Position numbers and translations under genes: made by a program
From: a virus
Lineage: Duplodnaviria; Heunggongvirae; Uroviricota; Caudoviricetes
Strand: one strand, 5' to 3'
IMG/VR virus record: IMGVR_UViG_2851955134_000006
Location: 1 to 12,320 of that record
DNA: 12,320 nucleotides
In this document: in pieces, positions 1 to 12,320 of the stretch
Numbering within the stretch: position 1 is the first letter of the stretch
How the letters are laid out: each line of letters begins with the position of its first letter
The notes under the pieces: model-generated
Databases searched by the model: none
What the model was told of the DNA's origin: nothing
What the model saw: only the letters and a program-made list of their open reading frames with translations

Positions 1-1230
1 ATGAGCAGAGCACTTAACAAACTGAGCGATACACAGCTAAGGAAAATCAACGGCACACCCGCCCAAAAAACAGTCTTTCTTAATGACGGTGGAAACCTGA
101 CCGTCAGGCATTCAACCAGCGGCCTTTTAACCTGGTATTTCACCTACAGGGCCGGAACGGGAAGGGGAGCACGACCGGAACGGATTAAGCTGGGAAATTA
201 TCCTGATCTGAGCCTGAAAGCAGCCAGGGAAAAAGCCGCACAGTGCCGCGCATGGCTGGCTGAGGGGAAAAATCCACGTCATGAGATGAATTACACCGTA
301 CAGGAAGCGTTAAAGCCTGTAACGGTTGGCGATGCGCTCACCTACTGGCTTGAGTCGTACGCAAAGGAAAACCGTGTGGATTATGACCCACTGAAAAAGC
401 GGCTAAATAATCACGTAATACAGCACATTGGCGCTATGCCGCTGGATAAATGCGAGCTACGGCACTGGCTGGCCTGTTTTGATCGGGTGGCAAAGCAAGC
501 CCCTGTTTCCGCCGGATTCCTGCTACAGACATGCAAACAGGCGCTTAAGTTCTGCCGGAAGCGGCGCTATGCAATCAGCAACGTTCTTGATGATATGAGT
601 GTTGCTGACGTTGGGAAAAAACCGGATATAAGTCAGCGTGTCTTAAGTAACAAAGAACTTGGCGAATTATTGCAGGCACTGGACAAAAAAATATTTTCCC
701 CTTACTACGTCGCACTAATCCGCCTCCTGATTGTCTTCGGAGCCAGGACAGTAGAACTGAGGCTATCGGAGATCGGGGAGTGGGATTTTACCGAAATGCT
801 CTGGACCGTTCCGAAGGAGCACAGCAAAACGAAGGTAGCCATATTCCGGCCCATACCGGAAGCGATACTGCCGTTCGTCACGCAGCTGGTGGAGCAGAAC
901 AGGCACACGGGCTTATTGCTGGGGGAAGTGAAACAGGAGGCCAGCGTATCGCAGTATGGAAGATTAGCGCACAGGAGGCTTAAACACCCTCACTGGTCAC
1001 TGCATGACATCCGGCGCACCTTTACAACGATGCTGAACGATTTAGGCGTGGATCCTCACGTCGTGGAGCAGCTTACAGGCCACCAGATGCCAGGAATGCA
1101 GCGAGTTTATAATCATTCCCGTTATCTGGATGCGAAACGCAATGCGCTGGATATGTGGGTGGAGCGGTTGGAGATACTGGCGGGAGCACATGAAAACGTA
1201 ACCACGCTACCAGTAGCCAGAAGAAAATAA
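1..1230 (+). CDS. int: Site-specific tyrosine integrase, P4-like family
   Basis: 409-aa ORF. N-terminal arm-binding-like region (LSDTQLRK...LNDGGNLTVRH...WYFTYR), C-terminal catalytic region with R..HxxR..Y-type signature (LHDIRRTFTT...GHQMPGMQRVYNHSRY). ATG sits at base 1, so the true start could lie upstream of the window. Confidence 0.9.
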   Translation: MSRALNKLSDTQLRKINGTPAQKTVFLNDGGNLTVRHSTSGLLTWYFTYRAGTGRGARPERIKLGNYPDLSLKAAREKAAQCRAWLAEGKNPRHEMNYTVQEALKPVTVGDALTYWLESYAKENRVDYDPLKKRLNNHVIQHIGAMPLDKCELRHWLACFDRVAKQAPVSAGFLLQTCKQALKFCRKRRYAISNVLDDMSVADVGKKPDISQRVLSNKELGELLQALDKKIFSPYYVALIRLLIVFGARTVELRLSEIGEWDFTEMLWTVPKEHSKTKVAIFRPIPEAILPFVTQLVEQNRHTGLLLGEVKQEASVSQYGRLAHRRLKHPHWSLHDIRRTFTTMLNDLGVDPHVVEQLTGHQMPGMQRVYNHSRYLDAKRNALDMWVERLEILAGAHENVTTLPVARRK

Positions 1231-1604
1231 TTTTTTTCGTGTTTTTTCAGTATGCGCATACTGGATAAGTGCACAGATACAACGGCGAACAATGTGAAAC
1301 AACGTGGAACAACCACGAACAAGAGGCCGAAAAATATACAGATTTATAAGTTGCTGATTTTTAATGCTCAACTGGTTTTTTATACATTAGCGAATAACGC
1401 TTTAAATAGTGAGAAAAAAGGCATGAAACGAGATTTTATGCCTTTGCATAATACTGAATTAAAATGTTTTTTATTAAAATTACCCCGTTTCTGTAAAATA
1501 CCCGCCACCAACATTTGCCAACTCTGAATCACCCTGACACAATCAGACACATACCAACGCAATAGAACACGAAATAACTCTTTAAGAAACGAAAGGGGGC
1601 AATA

Positions 1605-1793
1605 GTGTTAAGCACTGATCGCTTTATACGTGAAAAAGAATGCGAAAAGCTAACAGGCCTTAGCCGCTCATGCCGCTACCGCCTGGAAAAGGCCGGACAA
1701 TTCCCATCACGGCGTAAGCTGGGCGGTCGTTCCGTTGGCTGGTCTTTATCCGAAGTTCTGGCATGGAAGGAAAGCTGCGAGGCAGTTCACTAA
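1605..1793 (+). CDS. alpA: AlpA-family (prophage CP4-57 regulatory protein-like) HTH transcriptional regulator / excisionase-like protein
   Basis: 62-aa ORF with GTG start and SD-like aaggggg 6 nt upstream. Sequence pattern TGLSRS..YRL...GQFP...LGGRSVGW..SEV..W is typical of AlpA/Xis-like MerR-type HTH proteins, and its position directly after int is typical of P4-like islands and Gram-negative PICIs. Confidence 0.8.
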   Translation: MLSTDRFIREKECEKLTGLSRSCRYRLEKAGQFPSRRKLGGRSVGWSLSEVLAWKESCEAVH

Positions 1794-1934
1794 AAAGACT
1801 GGCGGCACACAGCCGCCACCCATCCACTAATACAGAGATTTAACCATGAAGACTGGATATACGCCCGAACAGGGGCGGGGCTTCGTTCGGCCTTGTGAAA
1901 CTGAAAAACAACAAAATCGCGGTTTTTCAGACAT

Positions 1935-1962
1935 AAAAAAAGCGGCCCCGATAAGGAGCCGC
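1935..1962 (-). terminator. Putative rho-independent terminator for the minus-strand two-gene module, possibly bidirectional
   Basis: Stem gcggcccc / ggagccgc (8 bp, one mismatch) with loop gataa, preceded on the plus strand by an A7 run, which reads as a T7 tract after the stem on the minus strand; lies about 160 bp downstream of the minus-strand ORF ending at 2121. Confidence 0.45.
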
Positions 1963-2120
1963 CTTTCTGAACAATTAACCTACTGCGCAAAAAATGAATA
2001 TGAGCAGTGGGATTATATCAACCGTGTGGCGAAGCGCCACAATTGCCGGATAACGGGCAAAGAAAAGGCCACCTGTCACGGTGGCCAATGTGATCAGTGT
2101 CCTGGCTTGCTGGTGGATTG

Positions 2121-2312
2121 TCAGCCAGGTGGGCGGTTTTTGTTTGCTTTTAAGCGCCGAGGGTATTTCTCGACAAAAGGATCAAGGGCGAACTTATCAG
2201 GAACTTTAAGATTTTCAGTGCGGGTTAATGCCTTATTTATTTCCCTGCGGGTTTTCTCACGCTGGCGCATGATAATTGATAATGCTTTATTTTGTAGTTC
2301 CTGGTTATTCAT
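2121..2312 (-). CDS. Hypothetical small basic protein (63 aa)
   Basis: ATG at 2312-2310 on the minus strand with SD aaggtga 7 nt upstream; the ORF track extends it to a GTG at 2321. Lys/Arg-rich (MNNQELQNKALSIIMRQREKTRREINKALTRTENLK...). Sits downstream of the RHH gene on the same strand. No recognisable family. Confidence 0.4.
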   Translation of the reverse strand: MNNQELQNKALSIIMRQREKTRREINKALTRTENLKVPDKFALDPFVEKYPRRLKANKNRPPG

Positions 2313-2369
2313 AATTATCACCTTTAAAACAATGCGCCGCAGTACCTCACACCACGGCGCTGATAGTAA

Positions 2370-2549
2370 TTATTCTGATTCTTTGGCCTTGCGGCGCTGG
2401 CGGCGTTTGATCTCGCCTTTTGCGGCAGTAACTAAAAAACCAGCGGTACTTTCGCCAGGTTCTTTAAGTTGCTCAATATCATCCATTACTTCATGTGGGA
2501 TTCTGACAGTTGTCATTTGTGATTTTGCGTTCTTTGCACCAGTTGCCAT
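2370..2549 (-). CDS. Ribbon-helix-helix (CopG/Arc/MetJ-like) DNA-binding protein, candidate repressor
   Basis: 59-aa ORF starting MATGAKNAKSQMTTVRIPHEVMDDIEQL, an RHH-like N-terminal beta-strand motif (TVRIP.E....IE.L). Strong SD aggaga 7 nt upstream of the ATG on the minus strand. The ORF track's 118-aa version begins at an upstream ATG with no RBS. Confidence 0.6.
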   Translation of the reverse strand: MATGAKNAKSQMTTVRIPHEVMDDIEQLKEPGESTAGFLVTAAKGEIKRRQRRKAKESE

Positions 2550-2610
2550 TTCTGGATCTCCTAAAAATTGGTGTATGTCAGTATACGCAAAAAAAATGAT
2601 AAAAAAAGGC

Positions 2611-2661
2611 TTGAAGTGTATTTCACCAGTGAGTAAATTAAAAAGCAAAGGTGAAATACAC
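2611..2661 (+). promoter_or_regulatory. Divergent control region: candidate rightward sigma70 promoter (TTGAAG -N17- TAAATT) overlapped by a perfect 12-bp inverted repeat operator
   Basis: gtgtatttcacc at 2616-2627 and its exact reverse complement ggtgaaatacac at 2650-2661, separated by 22 bp. The left arm lies in the promoter spacer and the right arm just downstream of the -10. Located between the minus-strand RHH gene and the plus-strand early operon. Confidence 0.45.
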
Positions 2662-2742
2662 CTGAAAGAGCAACGCCCCGCAGTGCTCGCAACACATGCA
2701 GGGCGTCTAACCACCAACGATAGCAAGAGTATCGAGGTAGCT

Positions 2743-2946
2743 ATGAGAAATCATACCACACACCCGCAAGGGCGGGACTCGCACAACCTGAATAAATACA
2801 TCTGGCGTTTTATCGCCCTGAGCACGGCACAACCGCGCGTAATTCACATCGAGGCCACCAGCGAACAGGAAGCACGTCAGCAATCTCCTGATGGCTGCGT
2901 GATGGTATTCGCCGCCCGTATTCGTCAGGAGGTGTGCCATGATTAA
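2743..2946 (+). CDS. Hypothetical protein (67 aa), first gene of the early operon
   Basis: ATG at 2743 with SD gaggt 5 nt upstream. The stop overlaps the next gene's start (ATG 2939, TAA 2944-2946), implying translational coupling. It is the C-terminal part of the long open frame 1846..2946, which is otherwise judged non-coding. Confidence 0.5.
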   Translation: MRNHTTHPQGRDSHNLNKYIWRFIALSTAQPRVIHIEATSEQEARQQSPDGCVMVFAARIRQEVCHD

Positions 2947-3307
2947 CCTGTCACTTACCGATCTTAACCGCGTTCAGTTTCGTGAGAAATTTACCGGACA
3001 GCTACTCGTCAATGTGGAGAACGGGCGCATAGTGCGTAATTATCACCTGCCGGATGGTGCAATTGCCGGAAGCGTTGAAGCATTGCTTGAACTGGCGGAA
3101 CGTGCGCGACTGATTAAGCCGTCAACGAACCATCACGATGATGATCTGCATTTTACCGGATGTATGGTGAGTCACTACGAAAACGGCGTCGAGGTATCCT
3201 GCGAACAGCTACGCACTGATTGCTGTTTTGGCACTCTGCCGGAATTTATCGAATTGCTGACCAGTTGCGGATATCAGGTTATTCAGGGGGTGCGCCATGT
3301 GCAATAA
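2939..3307 (+). CDS. Hypothetical protein (122 aa)
   Basis: Strong SD aggaggtg 4 nt upstream of the ATG; coupled to flanking genes. No recognisable family. Confidence 0.6.
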   Translation: MINLSLTDLNRVQFREKFTGQLLVNVENGRIVRNYHLPDGAIAGSVEALLELAERARLIKPSTNHHDDDLHFTGCMVSHYENGVEVSCEQLRTDCCFGTLPEFIELLTSCGYQVIQGVRHVQ

Positions 3308-3749
3308 CATCCGTCCGGACGCAGCCGCCGCCGCACTCACTACTCTGATGCACGCGCTTATTGATATTTCTGTTATTGCAGACATGGCGCATAAGCACGC
3401 CACCAGAGAGACGGAATATACAGGGGAAATAATCCCCCATTCGCTGGCCTACGCACAGCTTACCGCTGATATGGCACTGAATGAAGCCAAAGCCATCCTG
3501 ATTGCTGATTGTGAAAATGGGGGGGTTATGCGTGATGATCGTTTTAATGCCCTGAAACAGGAATTTTCCGGCGTTCCTGATAATGCGGCTGATGCGCTTT
3601 CGTCAATGCCAGAGCTTATTAGAGCGGCTTTTTTCTTACTTTCCACGAGAGAATATAAATCAACGGGGCTTGATGTACTGAATATCGCCGCCGATTATGC
3701 TGATTTCGTGACAGAGGTTATTTTAAGAAAAACGACGGACGGGGATTAA
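3297..3749 (+). CDS. Hypothetical protein (150 aa)
   Basis: ATG overlaps the upstream gene's end, with SD caggggg upstream. Protein-like composition. No recognisable family. Confidence 0.6.
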   Translation: MCNNIRPDAAAAALTTLMHALIDISVIADMAHKHATRETEYTGEIIPHSLAYAQLTADMALNEAKAILIADCENGGVMRDDRFNALKQEFSGVPDNAADALSSMPELIRAAFFLLSTREYKSTGLDVLNIAADYADFVTEVILRKTTDGD

Positions 3750-3750
3750 T

Positions 3751-3984
3751 ATGCGTGATATTTACCTAGAAACAATAGACCGCGCATTTAGTGCCATTGT
3801 TTACGCTGAAGGTATGTACGAAATATTGCAAATGTATCTGGATACATTTGGCGATAATGAGCGTGATGTAAAGAATGCGCGGATTATTAAATCTCTGATA
3901 ACTCTCCTTGAACCTGTAATAACAGAGTTGCAGGAAATAGACCTATTGCACGACAGATATAAAGAACAGCACACCGGAGAATAA
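3751..3984 (+). CDS. Hypothetical protein (77 aa)
   Basis: Starts 2 nt after the upstream stop, with SD gacgggga upstream. No recognisable family. Confidence 0.55.
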   Translation: MRDIYLETIDRAFSAIVYAEGMYEILQMYLDTFGDNERDVKNARIIKSLITLLEPVITELQEIDLLHDRYKEQHTGE

Positions 3985-3989
3985 AAATA

Positions 3990-4289
3990 ATGAAACTTAA
4001 ATATTCTGGCTTTACTGCCAGCGGCCCCGCTCGGCCTGAAATCCGCCCCGGCGATATTTTCAAAGATAACTACGGCGGCACGGTAACAATTAAAAGCGTG
4101 GAGGAACGTCGCGTAACTTACCGCCGTGATGGCTACGAATATGACTGCGTGATGCCTGTTTATCAGTTCCGGCGTGATTTTTCTCTGGTACAGAACGCAA
4201 CACGCGGTAAGCCCACCAGCAGGGAAAAAGCACGGGAAAATATTAAGAAAATAAAAAGCATGCTCAGCGCATCCAGAGGTAAAAAATGA
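3990..4289 (+). CDS. Hypothetical protein (99 aa), basic C-terminus
   Basis: SD ccggaga upstream; its stop overlaps the start of the replicase gene (ATGA at 4286-4289). Confidence 0.55.
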   Translation: MKLKYSGFTASGPARPEIRPGDIFKDNYGGTVTIKSVEERRVTYRRDGYEYDCVMPVYQFRRDFSLVQNATRGKPTSREKARENIKKIKSMLSASRGKK

Positions 4290-5692
4290 AACTGGCACCG
4301 AACGTAAAACTGTTACCGAAAGATAAACACACTGAGGCGGTTATTTTTGCGGGTGATAATGCTCACTCCTTTGCAGAACATTACATGATTGCACAGGCCA
4401 AAAAAGCAGGCGATCCCATCCCTCCGGTTTACCTGGGCCGTTATCAGTTAAGCGAACTGGACAACTTACAGATTGTTGATGAAGGACGATACAGGGCAAA
4501 GGTCATACGCGCCGGAAACCTGGACGATATGCAGATGCTGACCATTGCCACCAAACTGGCGATCGCAGGTGTCCAGGAAGCACGGTTACTTTCAGAGAAT
4601 TTCGAACTGCTGGAGGACTGGAGCGAGCAACTACCGCGGCTTAAAGAAACCTGGGAACGCGGGGAAAGTCTGGTCATGAATGGTGGAAAGCGAAAAATCA
4701 CACTTCCCATCTCATGGGGTTCTGAGGGATTCGACGCGCAGCAAAGCTACGTAATTAAGGGGCTTATTCCGGCTGAGTCATTATGCAGCACCTACGGGGC
4801 CAGCGGTTCTTATAAATCGTTCCTGGCTATTTCCTGGTCGTGCCATGTTGCCACAGGTATGGCATGGGGAGGCCGCAGGGTAAGTAAGGGCGCTGTTATC
4901 TATATCGCTGGCGAAGGCAGTATGGGCGTAAAACGCCGCGTTAAGGCGTGGGAGATAACCCATGACAAGGTGGTTACAGATTTGTGCATCATTAACGCGC
5001 CGGTATTCCCCGCATCGCCTGACTATGTGGAGCAGGTTATCAGGACTGCCGGACTTGTTAAGAGCAGAACGGGCGAAAATGTGCCGCTGATTGTGATCGA
5101 CACGCTGGCCCGTTGCTTTGGTGGGAATGATGAAAATGATTCCCGTGATATGGGCGCATTTATCCAGGGGTGTGACGCGATAAAGCAGGCTACAGGGGCC
5201 ACGGTGCTGGTGGTTCACCATTCCGGCAAGGATGAAACAAAGGGGGCGCGTGGTTCCAGCGCATTCCGTGCCGCGCTTGATGCAGAGTACCGAATCAGCC
5301 GGGAAAATTCAGACGTTACAGCACTGGTGGCGGCGTGTACGAAGATGAAGGACGCAGAGGAGCCAAAAGAAAGCGCATACGACCTTAAAAGCGTGGAGGT
5401 GTTCACCGATACAGATGGCGAAGAAATTGTGTCTATGGTGGTGATTGACGTTCCCCGCGCCCCTGCTGAACTGGAGCGCATCGAGGAAGCAGGCAACAAA
5501 TCGGAGAATCACGCCGCGCTATGGCAGTGCATCAGAACGCGGACGGCACACAAAGAGCCATGCACTATCGCCCTTCTCCGCGACGATATGAAAAAGCTGG
5601 GGTATGAGATGAAGCACTTCCGGCGCTGGCTGTCCAAGCTGGAAAAAGACGGCGTGATTTGTGTCGATGGGGATGATGTTTACCCACTGTAA
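4286..5692 (+). CDS. Replication initiator ATPase / helicase, RecA-like P-loop NTPase (RepA/AAA_25-like), satellite replicase
   Basis: 468-aa ORF with a P-loop-like segment (LIPAESLCSTYGASGSYKSFLAISW), a Walker B-like hhhhD segment (PLIVIDTLARCFG) and a VVHHSGKDETKG segment typical of RepA/DnaB-type ATPases. Immediately followed by an iteron array. Confidence 0.8.
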   Translation: MKLAPNVKLLPKDKHTEAVIFAGDNAHSFAEHYMIAQAKKAGDPIPPVYLGRYQLSELDNLQIVDEGRYRAKVIRAGNLDDMQMLTIATKLAIAGVQEARLLSENFELLEDWSEQLPRLKETWERGESLVMNGGKRKITLPISWGSEGFDAQQSYVIKGLIPAESLCSTYGASGSYKSFLAISWSCHVATGMAWGGRRVSKGAVIYIAGEGSMGVKRRVKAWEITHDKVVTDLCIINAPVFPASPDYVEQVIRTAGLVKSRTGENVPLIVIDTLARCFGGNDENDSRDMGAFIQGCDAIKQATGATVLVVHHSGKDETKGARGSSAFRAALDAEYRISRENSDVTALVAACTKMKDAEEPKESAYDLKSVEVFTDTDGEEIVSMVVIDVPRAPAELERIEEAGNKSENHAALWQCIRTRTAHKEPCTIALLRDDMKKLGYEMKHFRRWLSKLEKDGVICVDGDDVYPL

Positions 5693-5895
5693 AAAGTGGG
5701 TAGTAAAAGTGGGGAGAGTGGGGAATTTAACAAAATTGAAACATAATTCCCCACTTTCCCACCTGTATACATCCAAAAAAGTGGGGAGCAAAAAACGCAA
5801 TGAAAAACAAAGCATTAGATTCACTCAAAAAACGAAGTGGGGAGCAAGTGGGGAATTTAAAAAGTGGGGAGCAAAAGTGGGGAGTGGTGGGGAAT
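5693..5895. repeat. Iteron array, putative origin of replication of the element
   Basis: At least eight direct copies plus one inverted copy of the core AGTGGGGA, in two flavours (AGTGGGGAGCA and AGTGGGGAATTT), at roughly 5708, 5717, 5780, 5836, 5847, 5863 and 5876, with a variant at 5695 and the inverted copy at 5746-5757. AT-rich spacers. Sits directly downstream of the replicase gene. Confidence 0.7.
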
Positions 5896-5938
5896 GAATA
5901 AAAACCGAACAGCAGGACAAAATACAGAAGGTGAATTT

Positions 5939-6262
5939 ATGAACACTGAAATTGAAACACTGAGCATATCAACTGCCCTTCCTGGCTGGTGGGCTAAGTT
6001 CAAAGACGACGACGGCACGGAATGGTATAGCCCAATTGCTGCATGGGCGCTTTGTGAGATCCACCATTTCGGCACCGGAGATACTTACCGCGAAATCTTA
6101 CCCGTGCTGACCAGTGAGGTGGGCGTGAGTCCGCATAGTCCTGATGAGGGAATGTTCGAGTGCCTTTATCTGCCAGATAAGAAGTTTGTTCACTGCGGTG
6201 AGTCATGGGTATTTGCCTGGTATCCGGTTAACGACAGCAGCAATAGCGGTACTCTGGAGTAA
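5939..6262 (+). CDS. Hypothetical protein (107 aa; alternative start at ATG 5894 gives 122 aa)
   Basis: SD aggtga 4 nt upstream of ATG 5939. The longer ORF-track version starts inside the iteron array and is less likely. Confidence 0.5.
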   Translation: MNTEIETLSISTALPGWWAKFKDDDGTEWYSPIAAWALCEIHHFGTGDTYREILPVLTSEVGVSPHSPDEGMFECLYLPDKKFVHCGESWVFAWYPVNDSSNSGTLE

Positions 6263-6265
6263 ATC

Positions 6266-6508
6266 ATGAAGGTAAACCACAAAAAGACAGATCACCGCGC
6301 CATTGACCTTACAGAGCACTGGCTGAGGGTGGCGATAAAAATCATCGACCGCAACGCGGGAGAAGGATACGCGAAGGAACATCCCGAACTGATTAGCGCA
6401 TTCATGACAACGGCAGCTGCAAACTTTTCCACGCTGACAGAACGGGAGATTGCCGAAGCGCAACAGGTGACAACCATCAACGTTAAAACCAGTGAGGTGG
6501 AATCATGA
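6266..6508 (+). CDS. Hypothetical protein (80 aa)
   Basis: SD ggag 6 nt upstream; its stop overlaps the SSB start (ATGA). Confidence 0.5.
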   Translation: MKVNHKKTDHRAIDLTEHWLRVAIKIIDRNAGEGYAKEHPELISAFMTTAAANFSTLTEREIAEAQQVTTINVKTSEVES

Positions 6509-6915
6509 CAGCACAGATAGCGGCTTACGGGCGGCTGGTGGCTGACCCACAGTTAAAGACCACCAGCAAGGGTACACAAATGGCGATGGCGAGTATGGCT
6601 GTCCCCCTGCCGTGCAGCCAGGCAGATGACGGAACGGCGACGATGTGGTTATCCGTCCTGGCGTTTGGCAGACAGGCCGACGCACTGGCAAAACACCAGA
6701 AAGGCGAACTGGTGAGCGTGGCGGGTAACATGCAGGTGAGCCAGTGGACCGGACAGAACGGGGAAACGCGGCAGGGCTGGCAGGTTATCGCAGACAGCGT
6801 AATCAGTGCGCGGACAGTGCGACCGGGCGGAAAAACACGCAAAACCACAGGCACACAGGGTAATCAGCCACCAGCGGGAGACGATGACCCTTACGGTGAT
6901 GATATTCCGTTCTGA
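6505..6915 (+). CDS. ssb: Single-stranded DNA-binding protein (short, phage/plasmid-type SSB)
   Basis: 136-aa ORF with an OB-fold-like N-terminal region, a Gly/Gln/Pro-rich linker and the hallmark acidic SSB C-terminal tail DDDPYGDDIPF. SD gaggtgg upstream. Confidence 0.8.
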   Translation: MTAQIAAYGRLVADPQLKTTSKGTQMAMASMAVPLPCSQADDGTATMWLSVLAFGRQADALAKHQKGELVSVAGNMQVSQWTGQNGETRQGWQVIADSVISARTVRPGGKTRKTTGTQGNQPPAGDDDPYGDDIPF

Positions 6916-6925
6916 GGGGGTGACG

Positions 6926-7198
6926 ATGGTACATGACCGGATAGCGGAGGAACTGGAGGCGAAAGGATTTTACCGGAGGGCGGCCGCGCGATGGGGTGAA
7001 GTTATGTGGCTGGTGAGCACTGACAAGGAGCGCGAACAGGTGGCAATGCGACGGCTGGAATGTTCCCGGAAGGCACAGAGGCCACCGGAGCCACCGGATG
7101 ATTTAGGCGCTCTGAAAAGGTCAGTTAATCGCACTGAAAAACAAATGGGGATAGCTGGTATTGGCAAAGCAATATGGCGCAACTACCCGCAGAAGTGA
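6926..7198 (+). CDS. PerC-family transcriptional regulator-like protein (90 aa)
   Basis: ATG at 6926 with SD gaggggg upstream. The N-terminal segment MVHDRIAEELEAKGFYRRAAARWGEVMWL matches the PerC/Pch-family pattern (LE.KG.YRRAA.RW) as recalled from memory. The ORF track's longer version overlaps ssb and lacks an RBS. Confidence 0.5.
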   Translation: MVHDRIAEELEAKGFYRRAAARWGEVMWLVSTDKEREQVAMRRLECSRKAQRPPEPPDDLGALKRSVNRTEKQMGIAGIGKAIWRNYPQK

Positions 7199-7205
7199 GC
7201 ACACA

Positions 7206-7227
7206 GCCGGAGCAATCCGGCTTTTTT
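7206..7227 (+). terminator. Rho-independent terminator ending the replication/regulation operon
   Basis: Stem gccgga / tccggc, loop gcaa, then TTTTTT; 8 nt after the PerC-like stop codon. Confidence 0.6.
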
Positions 7228-7233
7228 ACGCCT

Positions 7234-7275
7234 AAAAAAAGCCCGATAAGGTCACAGGGGGCTTATCGGGCTTTT
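7234..7275. terminator. Second hairpin, likely a bidirectional terminator
   Basis: A7 run, then 10-bp perfect stem gcccgataag / cttatcgggc with an 11-nt loop, then tttt; it gives a T7 tract when read on the minus strand. Confidence 0.5.
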
Positions 7276-7354
7276 GCATATGAGGTTTTTTTTGGTGCAC
7301 TGACACACATGAACGGGATAATCATTTCATAATTTGCAACACAACTCAACATCA

Positions 7355-7403
7355 TTGCACAAAATGCAATCATGATTATAATCAGAGCTGGATGAACATC
7401 CAG
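7355..7403 (+). promoter_or_regulatory. Putative sigma70 promoter of the head operon with overlapping dyad symmetries
   Basis: TTGCAC at 7355-7360, a 16-nt spacer, then a consensus TATAAT at 7377-7382. The -10 is embedded in the perfect 12-bp palindrome tgattataatca (7373-7384), and an inverted repeat ctggatg-aa-catccag (7388-7403) sits at the predicted transcription start. Confidence 0.5.
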
Positions 7404-7438
7404 TTATGATTTTTTAAGTCAAAGAGGAATTTCTGACT

Positions 7439-7645
7439 ATGGCAGAAGAGAAAAAAGGCGGGGTGACGGTCTACATAAGCCCCGACATCGTGGAGGCGCT
7501 CAAGGAACGCCACCAGCAGAATGTAAAAGCAGGCATTGCGGCAGGACTTGATCCGCTGGCGATGGTTGAGCCGTCAACAGGCTGGCAGGTGCGCACCTAT
7601 TTACGTGCGGCGCTGGGTATCAATCAGGTTCACGGAGGTGAATAA
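7439..7645 (+). CDS. Hypothetical protein (68 aa), first gene of the head module
   Basis: SD aagaggaa upstream; its stop overlaps the capsid gene start (TAATG). Confidence 0.5.
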   Translation: MAEEKKGGVTVYISPDIVEALKERHQQNVKAGIAAGLDPLAMVEPSTGWQVRTYLRAALGINQVHGGE

Positions 7646-8700
7646 TGACAGGCAAAGCAACGGCACTTACAACTAACCAGCTTTTCGCGTACCTGAATCG
7701 CGGGGATATTGCGGATTTTAAATTCAGCCCTCTGTTTACCACGCTGTTTTTCCCGAACGTGGCGACCTTCAACACCCAAAACATCATGCTGGACACCCTG
7801 GACATTGAAGAGGTTACGATGTCAGCGTTCTGTTCGCCTATGGTGGGTAGTCAGGTCCAGCGCGATAAAGGGTACGAAACCAGCACGATTAAACCCGGCT
7901 ACATGAAGCCAAAGCACGAAATCGATCCAACAAAGACCATCATGCGCATGGCTGGAGAAGATCCGGCACAGCTTAACGATCCAACTTACCGCCGTATGCG
8001 CCTGATTACTGGCAACATGCGCCGCCAGATAAACGCCATTAAGGCGCGCGTGGAATGGCTGGCGGTGAATGCGGTAACGACCGGAAAAAACATCATTGAG
8101 GGCGAAGGCATAGAACGCTATGAAATCGACTGGAAAATACCGGAAAACTGCATCATACAGCAGGCCAGTGGTAAAAAATGGTCCCAGCAGGATAAAGACA
8201 TGCACGACCCAATCTATGACATCGAGCTTTATGCTGATCAGGCAGGTTGCCCCGCCAACGTCATGATTATGGGCGGTGAGGTATGGCGCACATTACGCAG
8301 CTTTAAAAAATTCCGTGAACTGTACGATCTTTCCCGTGGGTCAGAATCCGCCGCCGAGCTGGCCTGTAAAAACCTGGGCGAAGTGGTGAGCTTTAAAGGC
8401 TATCTTGGTGATCTGGCCCTTATCGTCTATTCCGGCAAATACACTGACAGCGACGGCACCGAAAAATATTTCCTTGAGCCTGATTTGCTGGTCCTGGGTA
8501 ACACCAACAATAAAGGGCTGGTGGCCTATGGTGCGATTATGGATCAGGAAGCGGTAAGAACGGGCGCAACGCAAAACATGTACTACCCGAAAAACTGGAT
8601 TGAGGACGGCGATCCGGCGATTGAGTACGTGCAGACGCACAGCGCACCGCAGCCGGTACCGGCAGATATTCGCAAATTTGTTACCGTCAAAATTGCTTAA
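7645..8700 (+). CDS. Major capsid protein, lambda gpE family
   Basis: 351-aa ORF with SD ggaggtg upstream. Blocks of similarity to lambda gpE as recalled from memory: DFKFSPLF..LFF near the N-terminus, PGYMKPKHEIDP (lambda PGYVKPKHEVNP), DPTYRRMRLITGNMR (lambda DPAYRRRRIIMQNMR), and C-terminal YPKNWIEDGDPA...SAP...FVTVKIA (lambda YPKNWVTTGDPA...SAP...FVSVQLA). Confidence 0.9.
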   Translation: MTGKATALTTNQLFAYLNRGDIADFKFSPLFTTLFFPNVATFNTQNIMLDTLDIEEVTMSAFCSPMVGSQVQRDKGYETSTIKPGYMKPKHEIDPTKTIMRMAGEDPAQLNDPTYRRMRLITGNMRRQINAIKARVEWLAVNAVTTGKNIIEGEGIERYEIDWKIPENCIIQQASGKKWSQQDKDMHDPIYDIELYADQAGCPANVMIMGGEVWRTLRSFKKFRELYDLSRGSESAAELACKNLGEVVSFKGYLGDLALIVYSGKYTDSDGTEKYFLEPDLLVLGNTNNKGLVAYGAIMDQEAVRTGATQNMYYPKNWIEDGDPAIEYVQTHSAPQPVPADIRKFVTVKIA

Positions 8701-8711
8701 CGGGGGATTCT

Positions 8712-9047
8712 ATGGACGCTCCATACATTGAGTTATTTTCAGGCAGCCAGCAGGTATCCACGACGCTGGTACATTTTGCCGCTGATGCTGGCGTTATTCA
8801 GGAATTTACCCCTCTGATGCTGGCAGACAATGGCGAGTTTAAGGCGTGGGATGGTCAGGAATCTGGCAAAGCTGTTTATCTGACTTCGCACCCCGTGGAC
8901 ACGTCAAAGCAGAAATCAGCACAGTGTTACAAAACGGGGATATTCAATATTGCCGCCGTTAACTGGCCTGATAGCGTCGACACCGATGCGAAAAAATGCG
9001 CCGCCTTTGCGGGTTCCGGCGTATCCGTTCAGCCGCTGGCCCGATAA
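8712..9047 (+). CDS. Head decoration protein, lambda gpD family
   Basis: 111-aa ORF with SD cggggga upstream. Similarity to lambda gpD as recalled from memory: TPLMLADNGEFKAWDG (lambda TPLMLDTSSRKLVAWDG), YKTGIF (lambda YKSGTF), and C-terminal KKCAAFAGSGVSV (lambda KKRTAFAGTAISIV). Confidence 0.8.
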   Translation: MDAPYIELFSGSQQVSTTLVHFAADAGVIQEFTPLMLADNGEFKAWDGQESGKAVYLTSHPVDTSKQKSAQCYKTGIFNIAAVNWPDSVDTDAKKCAAFAGSGVSVQPLAR

Positions 9048-9059
9048 GCAGGGGGAACG

Positions 9060-9473
9060 ATGGCAACGAATGAAAGTATCATGACGCTACCGCTGGCGAG
9101 TAAATTTAAAGCCGAAGCGCGGGCAATGGCTGACAGAGGTTTATCAACCTACGAGGCCATACACCGACTAAACAAACTGGAAGAACAGGACAAGCCGCGC
9201 GCTGATGCGATTATGGCGCTTCATGAATCTGACGACTACCAGCCGCTGTTACGTGCAATGGCTAACGTGCCTTGTATCGATGTTGGTACGGCTAAAAGCA
9301 TCCTTAGCATGACCATAGAGCAGGAACGCCCGAAGGTTGCACCAGAGCTTACTTCAGCCTTTGAAAACTTTATGGACATGCACAGCCCGAAAGCCGTATC
9401 AGCTGGCATGGCATACGATGGCAGAACCCCGGGCGATGACGGCGACATCGATCGCATACTGAAAACCATCTGA
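9060..9473 (+). CDS. Hypothetical protein (137 aa), last gene of the head module
   Basis: SD agggggaa upstream; followed 7 nt later by a terminator. No recognisable family. Confidence 0.55.
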   Translation: MATNESIMTLPLASKFKAEARAMADRGLSTYEAIHRLNKLEEQDKPRADAIMALHESDDYQPLLRAMANVPCIDVGTAKSILSMTIEQERPKVAPELTSAFENFMDMHSPKAVSAGMAYDGRTPGDDGDIDRILKTI

Positions 9474-9479
9474 GACAAG

Positions 9480-9502
9480 GCCGGAGAAATCCGGCTTTTT
9501 TT
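9480..9502 (+). terminator. Rho-independent terminator ending the head operon
   Basis: Stem gccgga / tccggc, loop gaaa, then TTTTTTT. Nearly identical to the terminator at 7206-7227. Confidence 0.65.
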
Positions 9503-9507
9503 GCGGG

Positions 9508-9575
9508 TCCTTTCCGGCATGTGGACCCGTTACGGGGCGTCGACCTCGCGCGTTTTCGCTATTTATGACGTTTTT
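9508..9575 (+). other. Lambda-like cohesive-end site (cos-1: cosQ-like flank, cosN, start of cosB)
   Basis: CGTTACGGGGCGTCGACCTCGCGCGTTTTCGCTATTTATGACGTTTTTCCG closely matches the lambda cos region as recalled (…GGGCGGCGACCTCGCGGGTTTTCGCTATTTATGAAAATTTTCCGG…). The predicted 12-nt cohesive end GGGCGTCGACCT (9535-9546) differs from lambda GGGCGGCGACCT at one position. Located about 90 bp upstream of a Nu1-like gene on the same strand. Confidence 0.75.
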
Positions 9576-9635
9576 CCGTGAAGGTGACACCACCACCACT
9601 TGATTAACATTTAATCGCATGATTAAGGTAACATT

Positions 9636-10076
9636 ATGATTGATAAAGCTTGTTTTGTGAGTCAGCAGGAAATAGCAGAACATTTCAAGGTCAACAGAAC
9701 CACTATTCGCGCATGGACCAAACAGGGCATGCCATATCTTGATGCGGATCGCGGAAAGTCCGGCGGTTATCACATCGGACACACATTATTCTGGTGCATG
9801 GGTAAAAGCCATCTTGATGCTATTGAGTACCACGGAGAAACCAGCGCACTGGAAAAGATTATGGTTGCCAGGTTGATTGCGTCAGAGCGCGACGAGTATT
9901 TCAGTGAAGAAACAGAACAGCGATTTGATGAAGGTTTGCATATTTACGGCTATTCACCGGAAGATGTGAGCAAGGCACGAAATAAAATGGCTGGCTTTCT
10001 GGCTGGGTGGCGTCATGCCGTAAGCGTTCGCCGTGCCAGCATGGAACAATCAGTCGTTACAGAACAGCAAAGTTAA
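9636..10076 (+). CDS. Nu1-like terminase small subunit homolog (N-terminal winged HTH); candidate packaging-redirection (Rpp-like) protein
   Basis: 146-aa ORF. N-terminus FVSQQEIAEHFKVNRTTIRAWTKQGMPYLDADRGKSGG resembles lambda Nu1 (QLADIFGASIRTIQNWQEQGMPVLRGGGKG, recalled from memory). The C-terminal region is shorter and unrelated to the Nu1 gpA-binding region. No large terminase gene follows. Confidence 0.7.
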   Translation: MIDKACFVSQQEIAEHFKVNRTTIRAWTKQGMPYLDADRGKSGGYHIGHTLFWCMGKSHLDAIEYHGETSALEKIMVARLIASERDEYFSEETEQRFDEGLHIYGYSPEDVSKARNKMAGFLAGWRHAVSVRRASMEQSVVTEQQS

Positions 10077-10079
10077 AAA

Positions 10080-10260
10080 TCACTTTCTGTTACGCCATCA
10101 AATACGCAATACAACAACCACGTATTTTTTTAAAACTATTTGATTCAATTAGCATTTTTTTATTTTTAGCATCAAAAAAACACTATCAGGTTGTTGTATT
10201 GCTCTTTATTTTTACTTAGTTATCAAATGGATATGACAAACAATTAAACAACAACCTCCC
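10080..10260. repeat. AT-rich region with a 14-bp perfect inverted repeat and short direct repeats
   Basis: gcaatacaacaacc at 10106-10119 and its reverse complement ggttgttgtattgc at 10189-10202 (69 bp apart), a third partial copy aacaacaacc at 10247-10256, and direct repeats of ttagcat in a T-rich context between the arms. Confidence 0.45.
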
Positions 10261-10272
10261 TCTAAAAAAGCT

Positions 10273-10345
10273 CATAAATAGCGAAAAACCGCGAGGTCGA
10301 CGCCCCGTAACGGGCCATAATTCCAGGAAGGACCCGACGACACCA
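10273..10345 (-). other. Second lambda-like cos site (cos-2), inverted relative to cos-1
   Basis: The reverse complement of 10273-10345 reads ggtgtcgtcgggtccttcctggaattatggCCCGTTACGGGGCGTCGACCTCGCGgtttttcgctatttatga. A 25-bp core is identical to cos-1, with flanking similarity on both sides (gggtcctttccgg versus gggtccttcctgg; cgttttcgctatttatga versus gtttttcgctatttatga). Cohesive-end equivalent at 10294-10305. Confidence 0.7.
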
Positions 10346-10369
10346 GACTATCAGAGCGATGGGCGCACA

Positions 10370-10651
10370 ATGACAGAAGCCGAACTACTGGGATTAATCC
10401 GCCGCGTTACCGGAATCAGCCAGCAGCATGACGAACAGGCCACGCAGCCGGACAGCGTGACCGCCGAAAATTACGCGTGTGTTGTTGCTGAGGTGATGCG
10501 CCGTGATGGTATTGAGCTTAACGGCGTGGATATGCGCAACATACGAACCAGAGTCCTTGAGTTGCTGGCATACCGTCGCCGTTCTCAACAACGGAGGGAG
10601 AGCGCGAAAAATACTTACCAGTGGAAGAAGCCGGAACGACTGCGTACGTAA
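10370..10651 (+). CDS. Hypothetical protein (93 aa)
   Basis: ORF with a weak SD; followed about 70 bp later by a plus-strand hairpin with a T tract. Arg-rich C-terminus. No recognisable family. Confidence 0.4.
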   Translation: MTEAELLGLIRRVTGISQQHDEQATQPDSVTAENYACVVAEVMRRDGIELNGVDMRNIRTRVLELLAYRRRSQQRRESAKNTYQWKKPERLRT

Positions 10652-10721
10652 TACGTACGGACATCGAGATAAAGACGGTTTAACCATCCATTAAAAATCG
10701 ACGTGATTTTGTGCTTTCCGG

Positions 10722-10745
10722 ATGACGTGGCCAACGTCATTTTTT
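10722..10745 (+). terminator. Putative rho-independent terminator
   Basis: Stem atgacgt / acgtcat, loop ggcca, followed by ttttt. Confidence 0.5.
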
Positions 10746-10967
10746 AGCGAAAAATTCTGATTAAGGTCATTGGCTGAATGGTCATAATGACCACTCCTAC
10801 AGAACAGGTAAAGCCCACCAGCCTGATTAAAGGTTAACCGGAAAAAAAGCCAGGTATCAATCTCGATATGTGGATCCCCATATCGACAGCAACGCCCCCT
10901 TAAAATTACCCGCCTTTATATTTCTTGTGCCTATTTGTTCCACGTTGTTTCATACAGTGCACCGATC

Positions 10968-10991
10968 GGTGTAGTTAATGGTGTAGTTAAT
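10968..10991. repeat. Perfect tandem duplication of a 12-bp unit (ggtgtagttaat x2), preceded by the palindrome accgatcggt
   Basis: Read directly: 10968-10979 and 10980-10991 are identical; the palindrome is at 10961-10970. Confidence 0.6.
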
Positions 10992-11084
10992 TTGCGATTT
11001 TTGGCACTTTTTTTAGTGTAAGTTGTTTAATTAAATCAATACGTTATTGAAAATAAGTTATAGATATATCCCATTTATGACTCC

Positions 11085-12320
11085 TTATTTCTGCCAGGCA
11101 AGTTGATAAAGCATGAGTGCCAACGTTTTGACCCCTTCGGCAAGGTCGGTAATATTGGTGCGTTCCGCCGGGTTATGGCTGATCCCATTGATGCTGGGAA
11201 TGAAAATCATGCAGGTTGGTACGCGAGGCGCGAAAATTTGCGCGTCGTGCCCGGCACCACTGTGCATCACCCGGTAATTCAGTTTTTCGCTTTCACACAA
11301 TTCTGTCAGGGTGGCGACCAGGTCCTTATTCATCGGCACGGGTTCTTCGTCCATCCATAAATCGATATCAATACCAATGTCCATTTCATCGCAAATCGCC
11401 CGCATGTCGTTTTCTAACTGCTGAGTGAAATCGCGCAGCACGGCGGCGTCGGTATGACGACAATCAATGGTGAATGTGGTTTTACCCGGCACCACATTCA
11501 CCGTATTCGGGCGCGGCTCCACCTTACCAAAGGTCAGCACCAGCGGGTCGCCCATCTTTTTCGCTTTTTCGATCGACTGATGGCAAATGCGACTGAAAGC
11601 GTAAACTGTATCACGACGGTAACCCATCGGCGTGGTGCCTGCATGGTTTGATTCGCCGTTCAGCGTCACCGTATAGCGACGTTGCCCGACAATTGCATTC
11701 ACCACGCCAATTGATTGCCCATTACTTTCCAGCACACAGCCCTGTTCGATATGCAGTTCGACAAAGGCTTTAATATCCTGACGCGGAGTTAGCGGGGCGT
11801 CCGGCAGAGTAAATCCGCAAGCCTTCATCGCATCGACAAAACTATTTCCTTTGGCATCACAGATATTCCGCACGTCGTCAGGATTCGCCAGCCCAAAGAT
11901 ATTTTTACTGCCCCAGAAAACATACGGGAAGCGGCTGCCTTCTTCTTCCGCCATCGCCACCACTTCAACCGTACGTAACGGCGCGCCGTATTGCCTTTTC
12001 AACCAGTCAATTGCCAGCCACGCCGCCAGCGCGCCGAATTGCCCGTCGAGGTTACCGCCGTTAACCACGGTATCGATATGCGAACCGCTCAGAACCACTT
12101 CCTGTGGATATTCGGTGCCACTCAGGCGACCGTATAAATTCCCCACTTCATCGAAACGTGTTTCCAGCCCGCTTGCTGCCATTCTTTTTTTAAATTGCTG
12201 CTGGGTTTCCAGCCATTCCGGCGAATAAAGTAAACGGGTCATCCCACCCGTTGGGTCAGCGCCAAAAGAGGAAAGCCAGGGCAGCGTTTCTTCTATGGCT
12301 TGACGGAAATGTGTAATCAT
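11085..12320 (-). CDS. allC: Allantoate amidohydrolase (M20 peptidase / hydantoinase-carbamoylase family), host chromosomal gene
   Basis: Complete 411-aa ORF with ATG at 12320-12318. M20-type metal-binding motifs (SGSHIDTV, DGQFG, EEEGSRF, HNPAE). Full-length match to my recollection of enterobacterial AllC (MITHFRQAIEETLPWLSSFGADP...). Confidence 0.8.
   Translation of the reverse strand: MITHFRQAIEETLPWLSSFGADPTGGMTRLLYSPEWLETQQQFKKRMAASGLETRFDEVGNLYGRLSGTEYPQEVVLSGSHIDTVVNGGNLDGQFGALAAWLAIDWLKRQYGAPLRTVEVVAMAEEEGSRFPYVFWGSKNIFGLANPDDVRNICDAKGNSFVDAMKACGFTLPDAPLTPRQDIKAFVELHIEQGCVLESNGQSIGVVNAIVGQRRYTVTLNGESNHAGTTPMGYRRDTVYAFSRICHQSIEKAKKMGDPLVLTFGKVEPRPNTVNVVPGKTTFTIDCRHTDAAVLRDFTQQLENDMRAICDEMDIGIDIDLWMDEEPVPMNKDLVATLTELCESEKLNYRVMHSGAGHDAQIFAPRVPTCMIFIPSINGISHNPAERTNITDLAEGVKTLALMLYQLAWQK

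Follow-up and report, generated by a model that had tools for sequence, protein, structure and literature searches.

Two opposed cos sites flank the rpp gene of a satellite island

We analyzed a 12,320-nucleotide (nt) stretch of Caudoviricetes DNA (IMG/VR record IMGVR_UViG_2851955134_000006, positions 1 to 12,320; hereafter the window), in which a gene for a Nu1-like protein is flanked by two lambda-like cos sites in opposite orientations. The window was 100% identical to Escherichia coli AR_0085 (NZ_CP029741.1), in which an island of ~11 kb is located between allE and allC. Because it combines an integrase gene, att repeats, a replication module, a late module like that of EcCICFT073, and an Rpp protein matching the Protein Data Bank entry 6HLK, we class the window by sequence as a phage-inducible chromosomal island (PICI): it is an Rpp-encoding PICI of the EcCICFT073 type, a satellite of lambdoid phages, in E. 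coli AR_0085. The Nu1-like gene is rpp (redirecting phage packaging; 9636 to 10076, + strand), and its product is a winged helix-turn-helix (wHTH) protein of 146 amino acids (aa) that matched RppC (6HLK) with an E value of 1.7e-32. It was identical to RppA of CFT073 (c1503) at 128 of 146 residues (88%), and R21-T22 in helix alpha2 and the VNRTTIRAW motif were conserved. The N-terminus matched the small terminase (TerS) family phrog_57. Compared to the 181-aa Nu1 of phage lambda, Rpp has the TerS-like wHTH N-terminus without the TerL-binding C-terminus.

A repeat search of the window showed an inverted repeat with arms at 9504 to 9575 and 10265 to 10336, each 72 nt long, which were 85% complementary and separated by 689 nt. 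Pairwise alignment of the arms showed that a 25-nt core, CCCGTTACGGGGCGTCGACCTCGCG, was identical in both. The cosQ-cosN-I2 sequence of lambda (from NC_001416) could be aligned with both arms without gaps from cosQ through I2, with the lambda spacing. The 12-nt cosN GGGCGTCGACCT, identical to that of lambda at 11 of 12 positions, had exactly two copies in the window, one in cos1 (9535 to 9546, + strand) and one in cos2 (10294 to 10305, - strand). The best 72-nt inverted window in the interval 9000 to 11000 had 61 matches, compared to a maximum of 44 in 30 shuffles. The repeat search, the lambda alignment, and the shuffles thus confirmed what an initial annotation of the window had described, namely two opposed lambda-like cos sites with unlike cosB-like flanks around a Nu1-like gene. 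An assembly artifact or a chance repeat, the former of which that annotation had kept as an alternative, was ruled out by the shuffle test and by the same arrangement in 52 complete E. coli genomes. The opposed sites were also present in CFT073 and in 20 IMG/VR contigs.

The core of cos1 (9500 to 9575, + strand) was delimited by alignments to the lambda cos junction, to cos1 of EcCICFT073, and to the published cos1 sequence. It consists of cosQ (TTTGCGGGTCCTTTCC, 9500 to 9515), cosN, and an I2-like segment (9547 to 9575). The cosB of cos1 follows with the element R3-PICI, AGGTGACACCACCACCAC, at bp 48 to 65 from cosN (9582 to 9599, + strand), which is the proposed binding site of the Rpp-TerS complex. 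Directly before cos1, a terminator-like hairpin, GCCGGAGAAATCCGGC, followed by seven T residues, was read from the sequence (9480 to 9502, + strand). Related islands keep it to the left of cos1, and it was not picked up by a consensus terminator scan; promoter and terminator consensus scans over 9400 to 10700 gave nothing exceeding the shuffle expectation. The core of cos2 (10259 to 10340, - strand), delimited by alignments to cos1, lambda, and related sites, consists of an I2-like segment (10259 to 10293), cosN, and cosQ (GGGTCCTTCC, 10326 to 10335). Past I2, the flanks of cos1 and cos2 were unrelated. Downstream of cos1 lies rpp, and downstream of cos2, in the minus-strand reading, lies a region of 75% A+T with a 14-bp inverted repeat (GCAATACAACAACC / GGTTGTTGTATTGC).

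The cosB of cos2 resembles that of N15/Monarch-type phages

We searched phage records with both cos regions using BLAST, and most hits were limited to cosQ-cosN-I2. The link to a known cosB was found through one Ravinvirus hit, followed by direct comparison with N15 and with prophages. Positions are counted from the first base of cosN, with cos2 read on the minus strand. Base pairs 48 to 59 of cos2, GAGGTTGTTGTT (10247 to 10258), were identical in register to bp 48 to 59 of phage N15 (NC_001901) at all 12 positions, and the same sequence was present at bp 48 to 59 in the Enterobacter Ravinvirus. In N15, this interval had been mapped as R3-N15, the single critical TerS site (Feiss 2015, PMC4669245). 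The same study described "Monarch" prophages with the R3 and the TerS recognition helix of N15 but with a complex cosB, which has three R sites, R2 in the opposed orientation, and an IHF site between R3 and R2. The cosB of cos2 (cosB2; 10106 to 10258, - strand) is of this complex type. R3 is the 9-mer GGTTGTTGT at bp 50 to 58 (10248 to 10256, - strand), R2 is its complement in inverted orientation at bp 109 to 117 (10189 to 10197), and R1 is again GGTTGTTGT at bp 187 to 195 (10111 to 10119, - strand). An IHF-like sequence, TATCAAATGGATA, with one mismatch to the IHF consensus, lies between R3 and R2 (10221 to 10233). The three copies of the 9-mer in cosB2 were the only ones in the window, with 0.1 expected by chance. 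The 14-bp inverted repeats pointed out in the initial annotation are R2 and R1 of cos2.

Structural comparison with prophages extended this similarity. In E. coli O111:H- 11128, a prophage has its cos directly upstream of terS. This cos was collinear with the whole 240-bp region of cos2, with the R sites at identical bp positions, and the homology stopped where terS of the prophage begins. The TerS of this prophage starts with MAFLLNKSDMASS and N15 gp1 with MAVLLNKSDMASS. The cos of a prophage in E. coli LH50-c, located upstream of an N15-type terS, was likewise collinear, with R sites at matching bp positions. In the island, what follows R1 is rpp, entered in antisense from its 3' end, and no N15-type terS was found, which makes cos2 an orphan. 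It appears to resemble a Monarch-type cos while belonging to no Monarch-type phage, and it looks like a complete copy of the packaging site of a different helper phage. This comparison adds a testable identity for cos2, which would be a copied phage cosB, not a divergent cosB.

The second site of EcCICFT073 had a counterpart among phages as well. Over 129 nt, its cos2 matched the cosB directly upstream of the Nu1 gene in Escherichia phage PhiR12_1 with 98.5% identity. The potB prophage of CFT073, whose TerS has a PhiR12-type N-terminus, has a cos of this type as well. R-like repeats, CATGTCCGG, were present at bp 51 to 58, 110 to 117, and 140 to 147 in EcCICFT073 cos2, PhiR12_1, and the potB prophage. 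Furthermore, three islands (L013, L014, and L023) had another cosN family at both opposed sites, and cos2 kept the Monarch-type R3; phage contigs joining this cosN family with a Monarch-type cosB exist. For both cosB2 types and for the second cosN family, cos2 thus matches a cos configuration of real phages. The cosB2 cassette varies among islands; the cosB motif of cos1, CACCACCACCAC (9588 to 9599), is constant and was also present in Klebsiella, Salmonella, and RppC-type islands.

Two side observations concern these elements. The second lambdoid cosN family, found in the IMG/VR contigs L178 to L211 and in the three islands above, consists of CACCGGGGG, ~8 to 10 hypervariable bases, and ACGCGCAAAAACGCGCTATTTATGA. 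Its presumed cohesive-end bases differ between near-identical sites, and the cosB types combined with it number at least five, four of them resembling those of lambda, 21, PhiR12, and the Monarch group. In addition, CACCACCACCAC is the reverse complement of TGGTGGTGGTGT, which is located at bp 51 to 61 from cosN in a phage contig encoding an N15-family TerS (L165, ~8298, - strand). This match may be a hint at the origin or the binding orientation of the Rpp site.

Comparison with EcCICFT073 and other cos sites

The initial annotation had assumed that described satellites have one cos each, and this premise was wrong: EcCICFT073 "carries two cosN sequences" (Fillol-Salom 2018 ISME J, PMC6092414) and was published with two functional cos sites (PMC6092414, PMC6739421). 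Each of its cos sites, when cloned, makes a plasmid transferable by lambda and phi80; in the island itself, deletion of cos1 lowers transfer, deletion of cos2 raises it, and the double deletion abolishes it (PMC6092414). RppA forms a heterodimer with the helper TerS (Fillol-Salom 2019 Mol Cell, PMC6739421) and boosts the transfer only of plasmids with the cosB of cos1, a property that moves with swapped cosB regions (PMC6739421). These papers show that the Rpp-TerS heterocomplex recognizes cos1, which is essential, and that cos2 works but can be dispensed with (Fillol-Salom 2018, 2019). Excision, replication, and packaging induced by a helper, as well as interference, have been demonstrated for EcCICFT073 only. 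Both sequences printed in Figure S1A of PMC6739421, that of cos1 and that of cos2, are the ones found by us in CFT073 and are homologous to the two sites of the window. Murialdo and Feiss proposed the position of cosB for cos1, and their later review covers the cos1-type site only. In the literature searched, cos2 was mentioned together with EcCICFT073 only in the 2018 and 2019 papers, and no new treatment of the two sites was found from 2019 on. The double cos as such is already published for this family, and the window is a new member of it.

The two islands share the order PerC, capsid, decoration protein, 137-aa gene, cos1, rpp, inverted cos2, and 93-aa open reading frame (ORF). Their capsid, decoration, and 137-aa proteins are 93 to 96% identical, compared to the 88% of Rpp. 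The cosB of cos1 is identical in both, cos2 is inverted at the corresponding place, and the cos sites are collinear. However, the window departs from EcCICFT073 in where it is integrated, in its replication gene, in its variant of cosN, and in the type of its cosB2. EcCICFT073 is inserted at roxA/phoQ, as opposed to allE/allC for the window, and encodes a DNA primase at the position equivalent to that of the RepA helicase in the window. The cosN of the window carries G6T at both sites, unlike that of EcCICFT073. The cosB regions of cos2 are unrelated, being of the N15/Monarch type with GGTTGTTGT repeats in the window and of the PhiR12/potB-prophage type with CATGTCCGG repeats in EcCICFT073.

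Compared to lambda, the window has the same cosQ, GGGTCCTT, the nearly identical cosN described above, and an equally spaced I2 (CGC..TTTTCGCTATTTATGA). However, the R3, R2, and R1 sequences of lambda were present at neither window site, and the window has two opposed sites per genome. With N15 and the Monarch prophages, cos2 shares the sequence and position of R3 and the lambda-like cosQ, cosN, and I2, and with the latter also the three R sites and the opposed R2; the candidate IHF site of cos2 lies in the corresponding interval between R3 and R2. N15 differs in having only R3 plus a remote rR2, and cos2 of the window differs from both in a satellite-specific spacer next to cosQ, CCTTCCTGGAATTATGG. 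SaPIbov4 and SaPIbov5, which we compared by their descriptions, are likewise satellites with helper-type cos sites, and SaPIbov4 was reported to have two putative cos sites. Their sequences are unrelated, however, and they depend on HNH-dependent cos phages without an Rpp-type retargeting protein.

The double cos described here is therefore a rediscovery, and the reason for the second site had been explicitly left open (Fillol-Salom 2018, 2019). Our comparison ties cos2 to identifiable phage groups, namely N15/Monarch for this island and PhiR12 and the CFT073 potB prophage for the prototype.

Conservation and exchange of the cos sites

Relatives of Rpp were collected using a word-indexed protein search, which gave 17; a profile search with one genome per species found no relatives. 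All 21 of the examined E. coli islands with an RppA/B-type protein and a lambda-type cosN had cos1 on the plus strand and cos2 on the minus strand, 762 to 783 bp apart. The conservation of the duplication in related islands, which the initial annotation had proposed as a check, was thus borne out in its opposed geometry in all the E. coli islands examined. The cosB2 was Monarch-type in 9 of them and PhiR12-type in 12. Among the 9 Monarch-type islands, the mean pairwise difference was 0.008 for cosB2 and 0.006 for the cosQ of cos2, compared to 0.055 for rpp, 0.048 for the 137-aa gene, and 0.123 for the 93-aa ORF. A 196-nt cosB2 query was 100% identical in at least 29 complete genomes, in most of which a wider query (9300 to 10700) was only ~91 to 94% identical. 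Such low variability in a non-coding, A+T-rich spacer, far below that of the genes next to it, suggests constraint, or else a recent spread of the cassette.

The cosN variant of the window, with T at position 6, was rare. It was found in 9 IMG/VR contigs and is present at both window sites. It also occurred in Monarch-type phage contigs, in which cosQ-cosN equaled the left half of window cos1 and cosN-I2 equaled the core of cos2. In E. coli LH50-c, an island of 98% identity, again with T in both cosN copies, is found together with the Monarch-type prophage, which carries the T variant and whose 40-nt core was identical to that of window cos2 (40/40). One IMG isolate holds both a cos1 contig and a Monarch-type phage with the T variant. 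Moreover, the cosQ spacer specific for cos2 was found at cos1 in 5 of the 21 islands, a signature of gene conversion between the arms.

Two contigs had mosaic structures at cos. L172 (positions 1 to 473) has a forward PhiR12-type cosB at the position of cos1, is without the first ~365 nt of rpp, and has a Monarch-type cosB2 downstream. In L170 (positions 3564 to 4614), a PICI late module runs up to cosN, from which a PhiR12-type cosB and a phage terS continue. The two structures end at contig breaks and may be real cos recombinants or assembly chimeras across the shared core. As a separate observation, the Rpp islands of Klebsiella and Salmonella and that of E. coli TUM9812 (L007 to L009, L011, and L163) are inserted in prophage late genes (capsid E, terminase A). 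They correspond to the helper-embedded PICIs described by Williams and colleagues, and those of Klebsiella and Salmonella have cos1 only.

Proposed role of the two sites and alternative explanations

We consider it probable that the island carries two complete packaging sites of different specificity, placed in opposite orientations around rpp, and that cos2 serves a second specificity group of helpers independently of Rpp. A fuller version of this proposal, to which we give an even chance, is that the sites are two addresses for two groups of terminases. They would be an Rpp-dependent cos1 and a cos2 stolen intact for helpers that Rpp cannot retarget, with an exchangeable cosB2 and an orientation that protects rpp. 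Rpp-independent packaging by a second helper group would be the most likely role of cos2.

By homology with EcCICFT073, a heterodimer of Rpp and a TerS of the lambda, phi80, or 21 type would recognize the cosB of cos1 and retarget the terminase from the phage cos, and packaging started at cos1 would proceed rightwards through rpp and around the concatemer. At cos2, a TerS of the N15/Monarch type would bind directly to R3, R2, and R1 without Rpp, and packaging would proceed leftwards; a PhiR12-type helper would take the corresponding place for cos2 of EcCICFT073. The second site would in this way widen the range of helpers able to package the island. The DNA-binding domain of Rpp resembles TerS of the lambda and 21 types (E of about 4e-5), with no detectable likeness to Monarch-type TerS and a weak one to the PhiR12 type (E = 0.12). 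This pattern fits a protein that would be unable to retarget helpers of the Monarch and PhiR12 types. The raised lambda-mediated transfer after deletion of cos2 agrees with a site that brings no benefit, and slight harm, when the helper is non-cognate.

The opposed orientation may have its own significance. Lambda-like termination needs cosQ-cosN-I2 and is not cosB-specific (PMC4669245). Two direct sites 770 bp apart would therefore give genomes lacking or duplicating the rpp segment. Opposed sites, in contrast, would be invisible to each other's translocating terminase, and the orientation would keep the two sites compatible. This rationale assumes that the terminase recognizes the terminal cos in one orientation only, as in lambda. 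The shared 72-bp core would serve as a recombination substrate between the sites and with helpers, keeping cosN and cosQ matched and letting cosB2 modules swap. Among the options offered in the initial annotation, recognition of one site by a satellite/helper heterocomplex and of the other by the helper TerS was the best supported. For cos1, the former part follows in essence from the published genetics, in which RppA-TerS works solely through the cosB of this site, and the latter part is what the phage-type cosB of cos2 suggests.

Several observations weigh against this role for cos2. Deletion of cos2 in EcCICFT073 raises transfer by lambda and phi80 (PMC6092414), so the site has a measurable cost. 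We infer the use of cos2 by an N15/Monarch-type terminase from its sequence, in which the IHF-like site is one mismatch off the consensus. The conservation of cosB2 could reflect recent recombinational spread and not purifying selection. Among the Rpp islands examined, those of the RppC type and those of Klebsiella and Salmonella had no second site; cos2 is therefore an accessory feature, outside the core mechanism. No enrichment of matching prophages was found, as a second matching place was present in only 2 of 32 genomes with a cosB2 of at least 99% identity, and AR_0085 was without any second Monarch-type cosB.

The cost of cos2, its absence from these relatives, and the lack of enrichment of matching prophages, together with mosaic contigs that show frequent recombination at cos, would also be expected if cos2 were a non-adaptive relic, that is, a piece of a helper cos captured at the shared cosN core, cuttable but with no selected role. 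We regard this as unlikely. Decay or loss would be expected of a neutral insert that carries a cost, which fits the conservation poorly: 21/21 RppA/B-type islands of E. coli keep cos2, in at least two cosB2 types and two cosN families, the three R repeats have all stayed intact at phage spacing, and a non-coding region of 75% A+T is 6 to 15 times less variable than the neighboring genes. It is more doubtful still that cos2 acts as a decoy that titrates the helper terminase (interference) or as a landing pad for new cosN and cosQ variants, which are then gene-converted to cos1. The cos2-type cosQ at cos1 in 5/21 islands, the rare T in cosN at both window sites and in Monarch-type phages, and the islands with the other cosN family, switched at both sites, are consistent with such an adapter. 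However, gene conversion follows from having a repeat and does not show that the repeat was selected, three R sites at the correct spacing plus cosQ would be superfluous for a decoy, and published interference maps to rpp.

The two other options of the initial annotation fared less well. Opposed sites that drive bidirectional packaging of the flanking chromosome from an unexcised island, like lateral transduction, would account for the opposite directions of the two sites. Packaging from cos terminates at a second co-oriented cos, at roughly 78 to 105% of genome length. In CFT073, where the prophage cos and the island cos1 are co-oriented ~39 kb apart, cos-to-cos packaging is conceivable. However, neither window site had a co-oriented partner within the 25 kb examined, AR_0085 had no other Monarch-type cosB, and the direction of cos2 runs into the island, not outwards, which makes this explanation very improbable for the window. 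We give slightly less credence to an rpp switch, in which double cutting at cosN or recombination between the arms inverts or excises the 770-bp cassette. Double cutting would be predicted to leave identical overhangs that could be religated either way, and contig L172 has a forward phage-type cosB at the cos1 position. However, a single orientation was observed in 21/21 islands and in all single-piece alignments in the 52 complete genomes, and the clean inverted configuration was found in 0/21 related islands. L172, a variant rearranged at a contig end and with a truncated rpp, does not represent a clean inversion, and an excised cassette with two identical overhangs could not circularize. 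As for CFT073 itself (NC_004431), the potB-prophage cos lies at ~1,348,531 (L175) and EcCICFT073 cos1 at ~1,387,558 (L006), a distance near the lower packaging limit of the lambda head, so that the chromosome between them could conceivably be packaged along with most of the island.

If N15/Monarch- and PhiR12-type terminases do use cos2, the helper range of these islands would be wider than assays with lambda and phi80 reveal, and switchable. This would bear on the spread of the islands and their cargo among E. coli lineages and on the design of PICI-based delivery particles.

Other features of the island

The ends of the island are marked by a 24-nt direct repeat, found by a repeat search including the AR_0085 flanks, with its copies ~11 kb apart. 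The right copy, attR (GGTGTAGTTAATGGTGTAGTTAAT), lies at 10968 to 10991 (+ strand), and the same 24-mer, attL, is located just upstream of the start of the window. At the left end of the PICI, a tyrosine recombinase is encoded (1 to 1230, + strand; Pfam Arm-DNA-bind_3 and Phage_integrase), in agreement with the RefSeq annotation of AR_0085. The regulation and replication genes identified by annotation, Pfam, and PHROG encode a small HTH regulator, an Icd-like protein, a helicase of the RepA family (4286 to 5692, + strand; Pfam AAA_25, E = 2.5e-42), and SSB; a PerC gene is also present.

The late module (7645 to 9473, + strand) consists of genes for a lambda E-like major capsid protein (7645 to 8700; Pfam Phage_cap_E, E = 2.5e-50), a D-like decoration protein (8712 to 9047; Pfam HDPD, E = 2.2e-17), and a 137-aa protein (9060 to 9473), all on the plus strand, with PHROG matches to phrog_1999 and phrog_53. 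These were the only structural genes detected by Pfam, annotation, and PHROG, and no terS, terL, portal, or tail genes of the island's own were found. The trio is also present in EcCICFT073 (c1499, c1500). In published work, deletion of the capsid-module genes of EcCICFT073 left interference unaffected, and the island was packaged in phage-sized heads. The only functional PHROG relative of the 137-aa protein was the C-terminal, scaffold-like end of a head maturation protease (phrog_53, positions 496 to 567 of 583).

A 93-aa ORF (10370 to 10651, + strand; phrog_1561), annotated as hypothetical, adjoins the cosQ side of cos2. It varies more than any other late-region gene and is 75% identical to its EcCICFT073 homologue. 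As a clue to origin it gave no lead, being almost absent from phage records. A 366-aa ORF at 1846 to 2946 is not a single gene in RefSeq, where this stretch is occupied by a pseudogene fragment, the Icd-like gene, and two small genes on the minus strand, of which one is YlcI/YnfO-like; only the C-terminal ~90 residues of the ORF matched PHROG repressor families.

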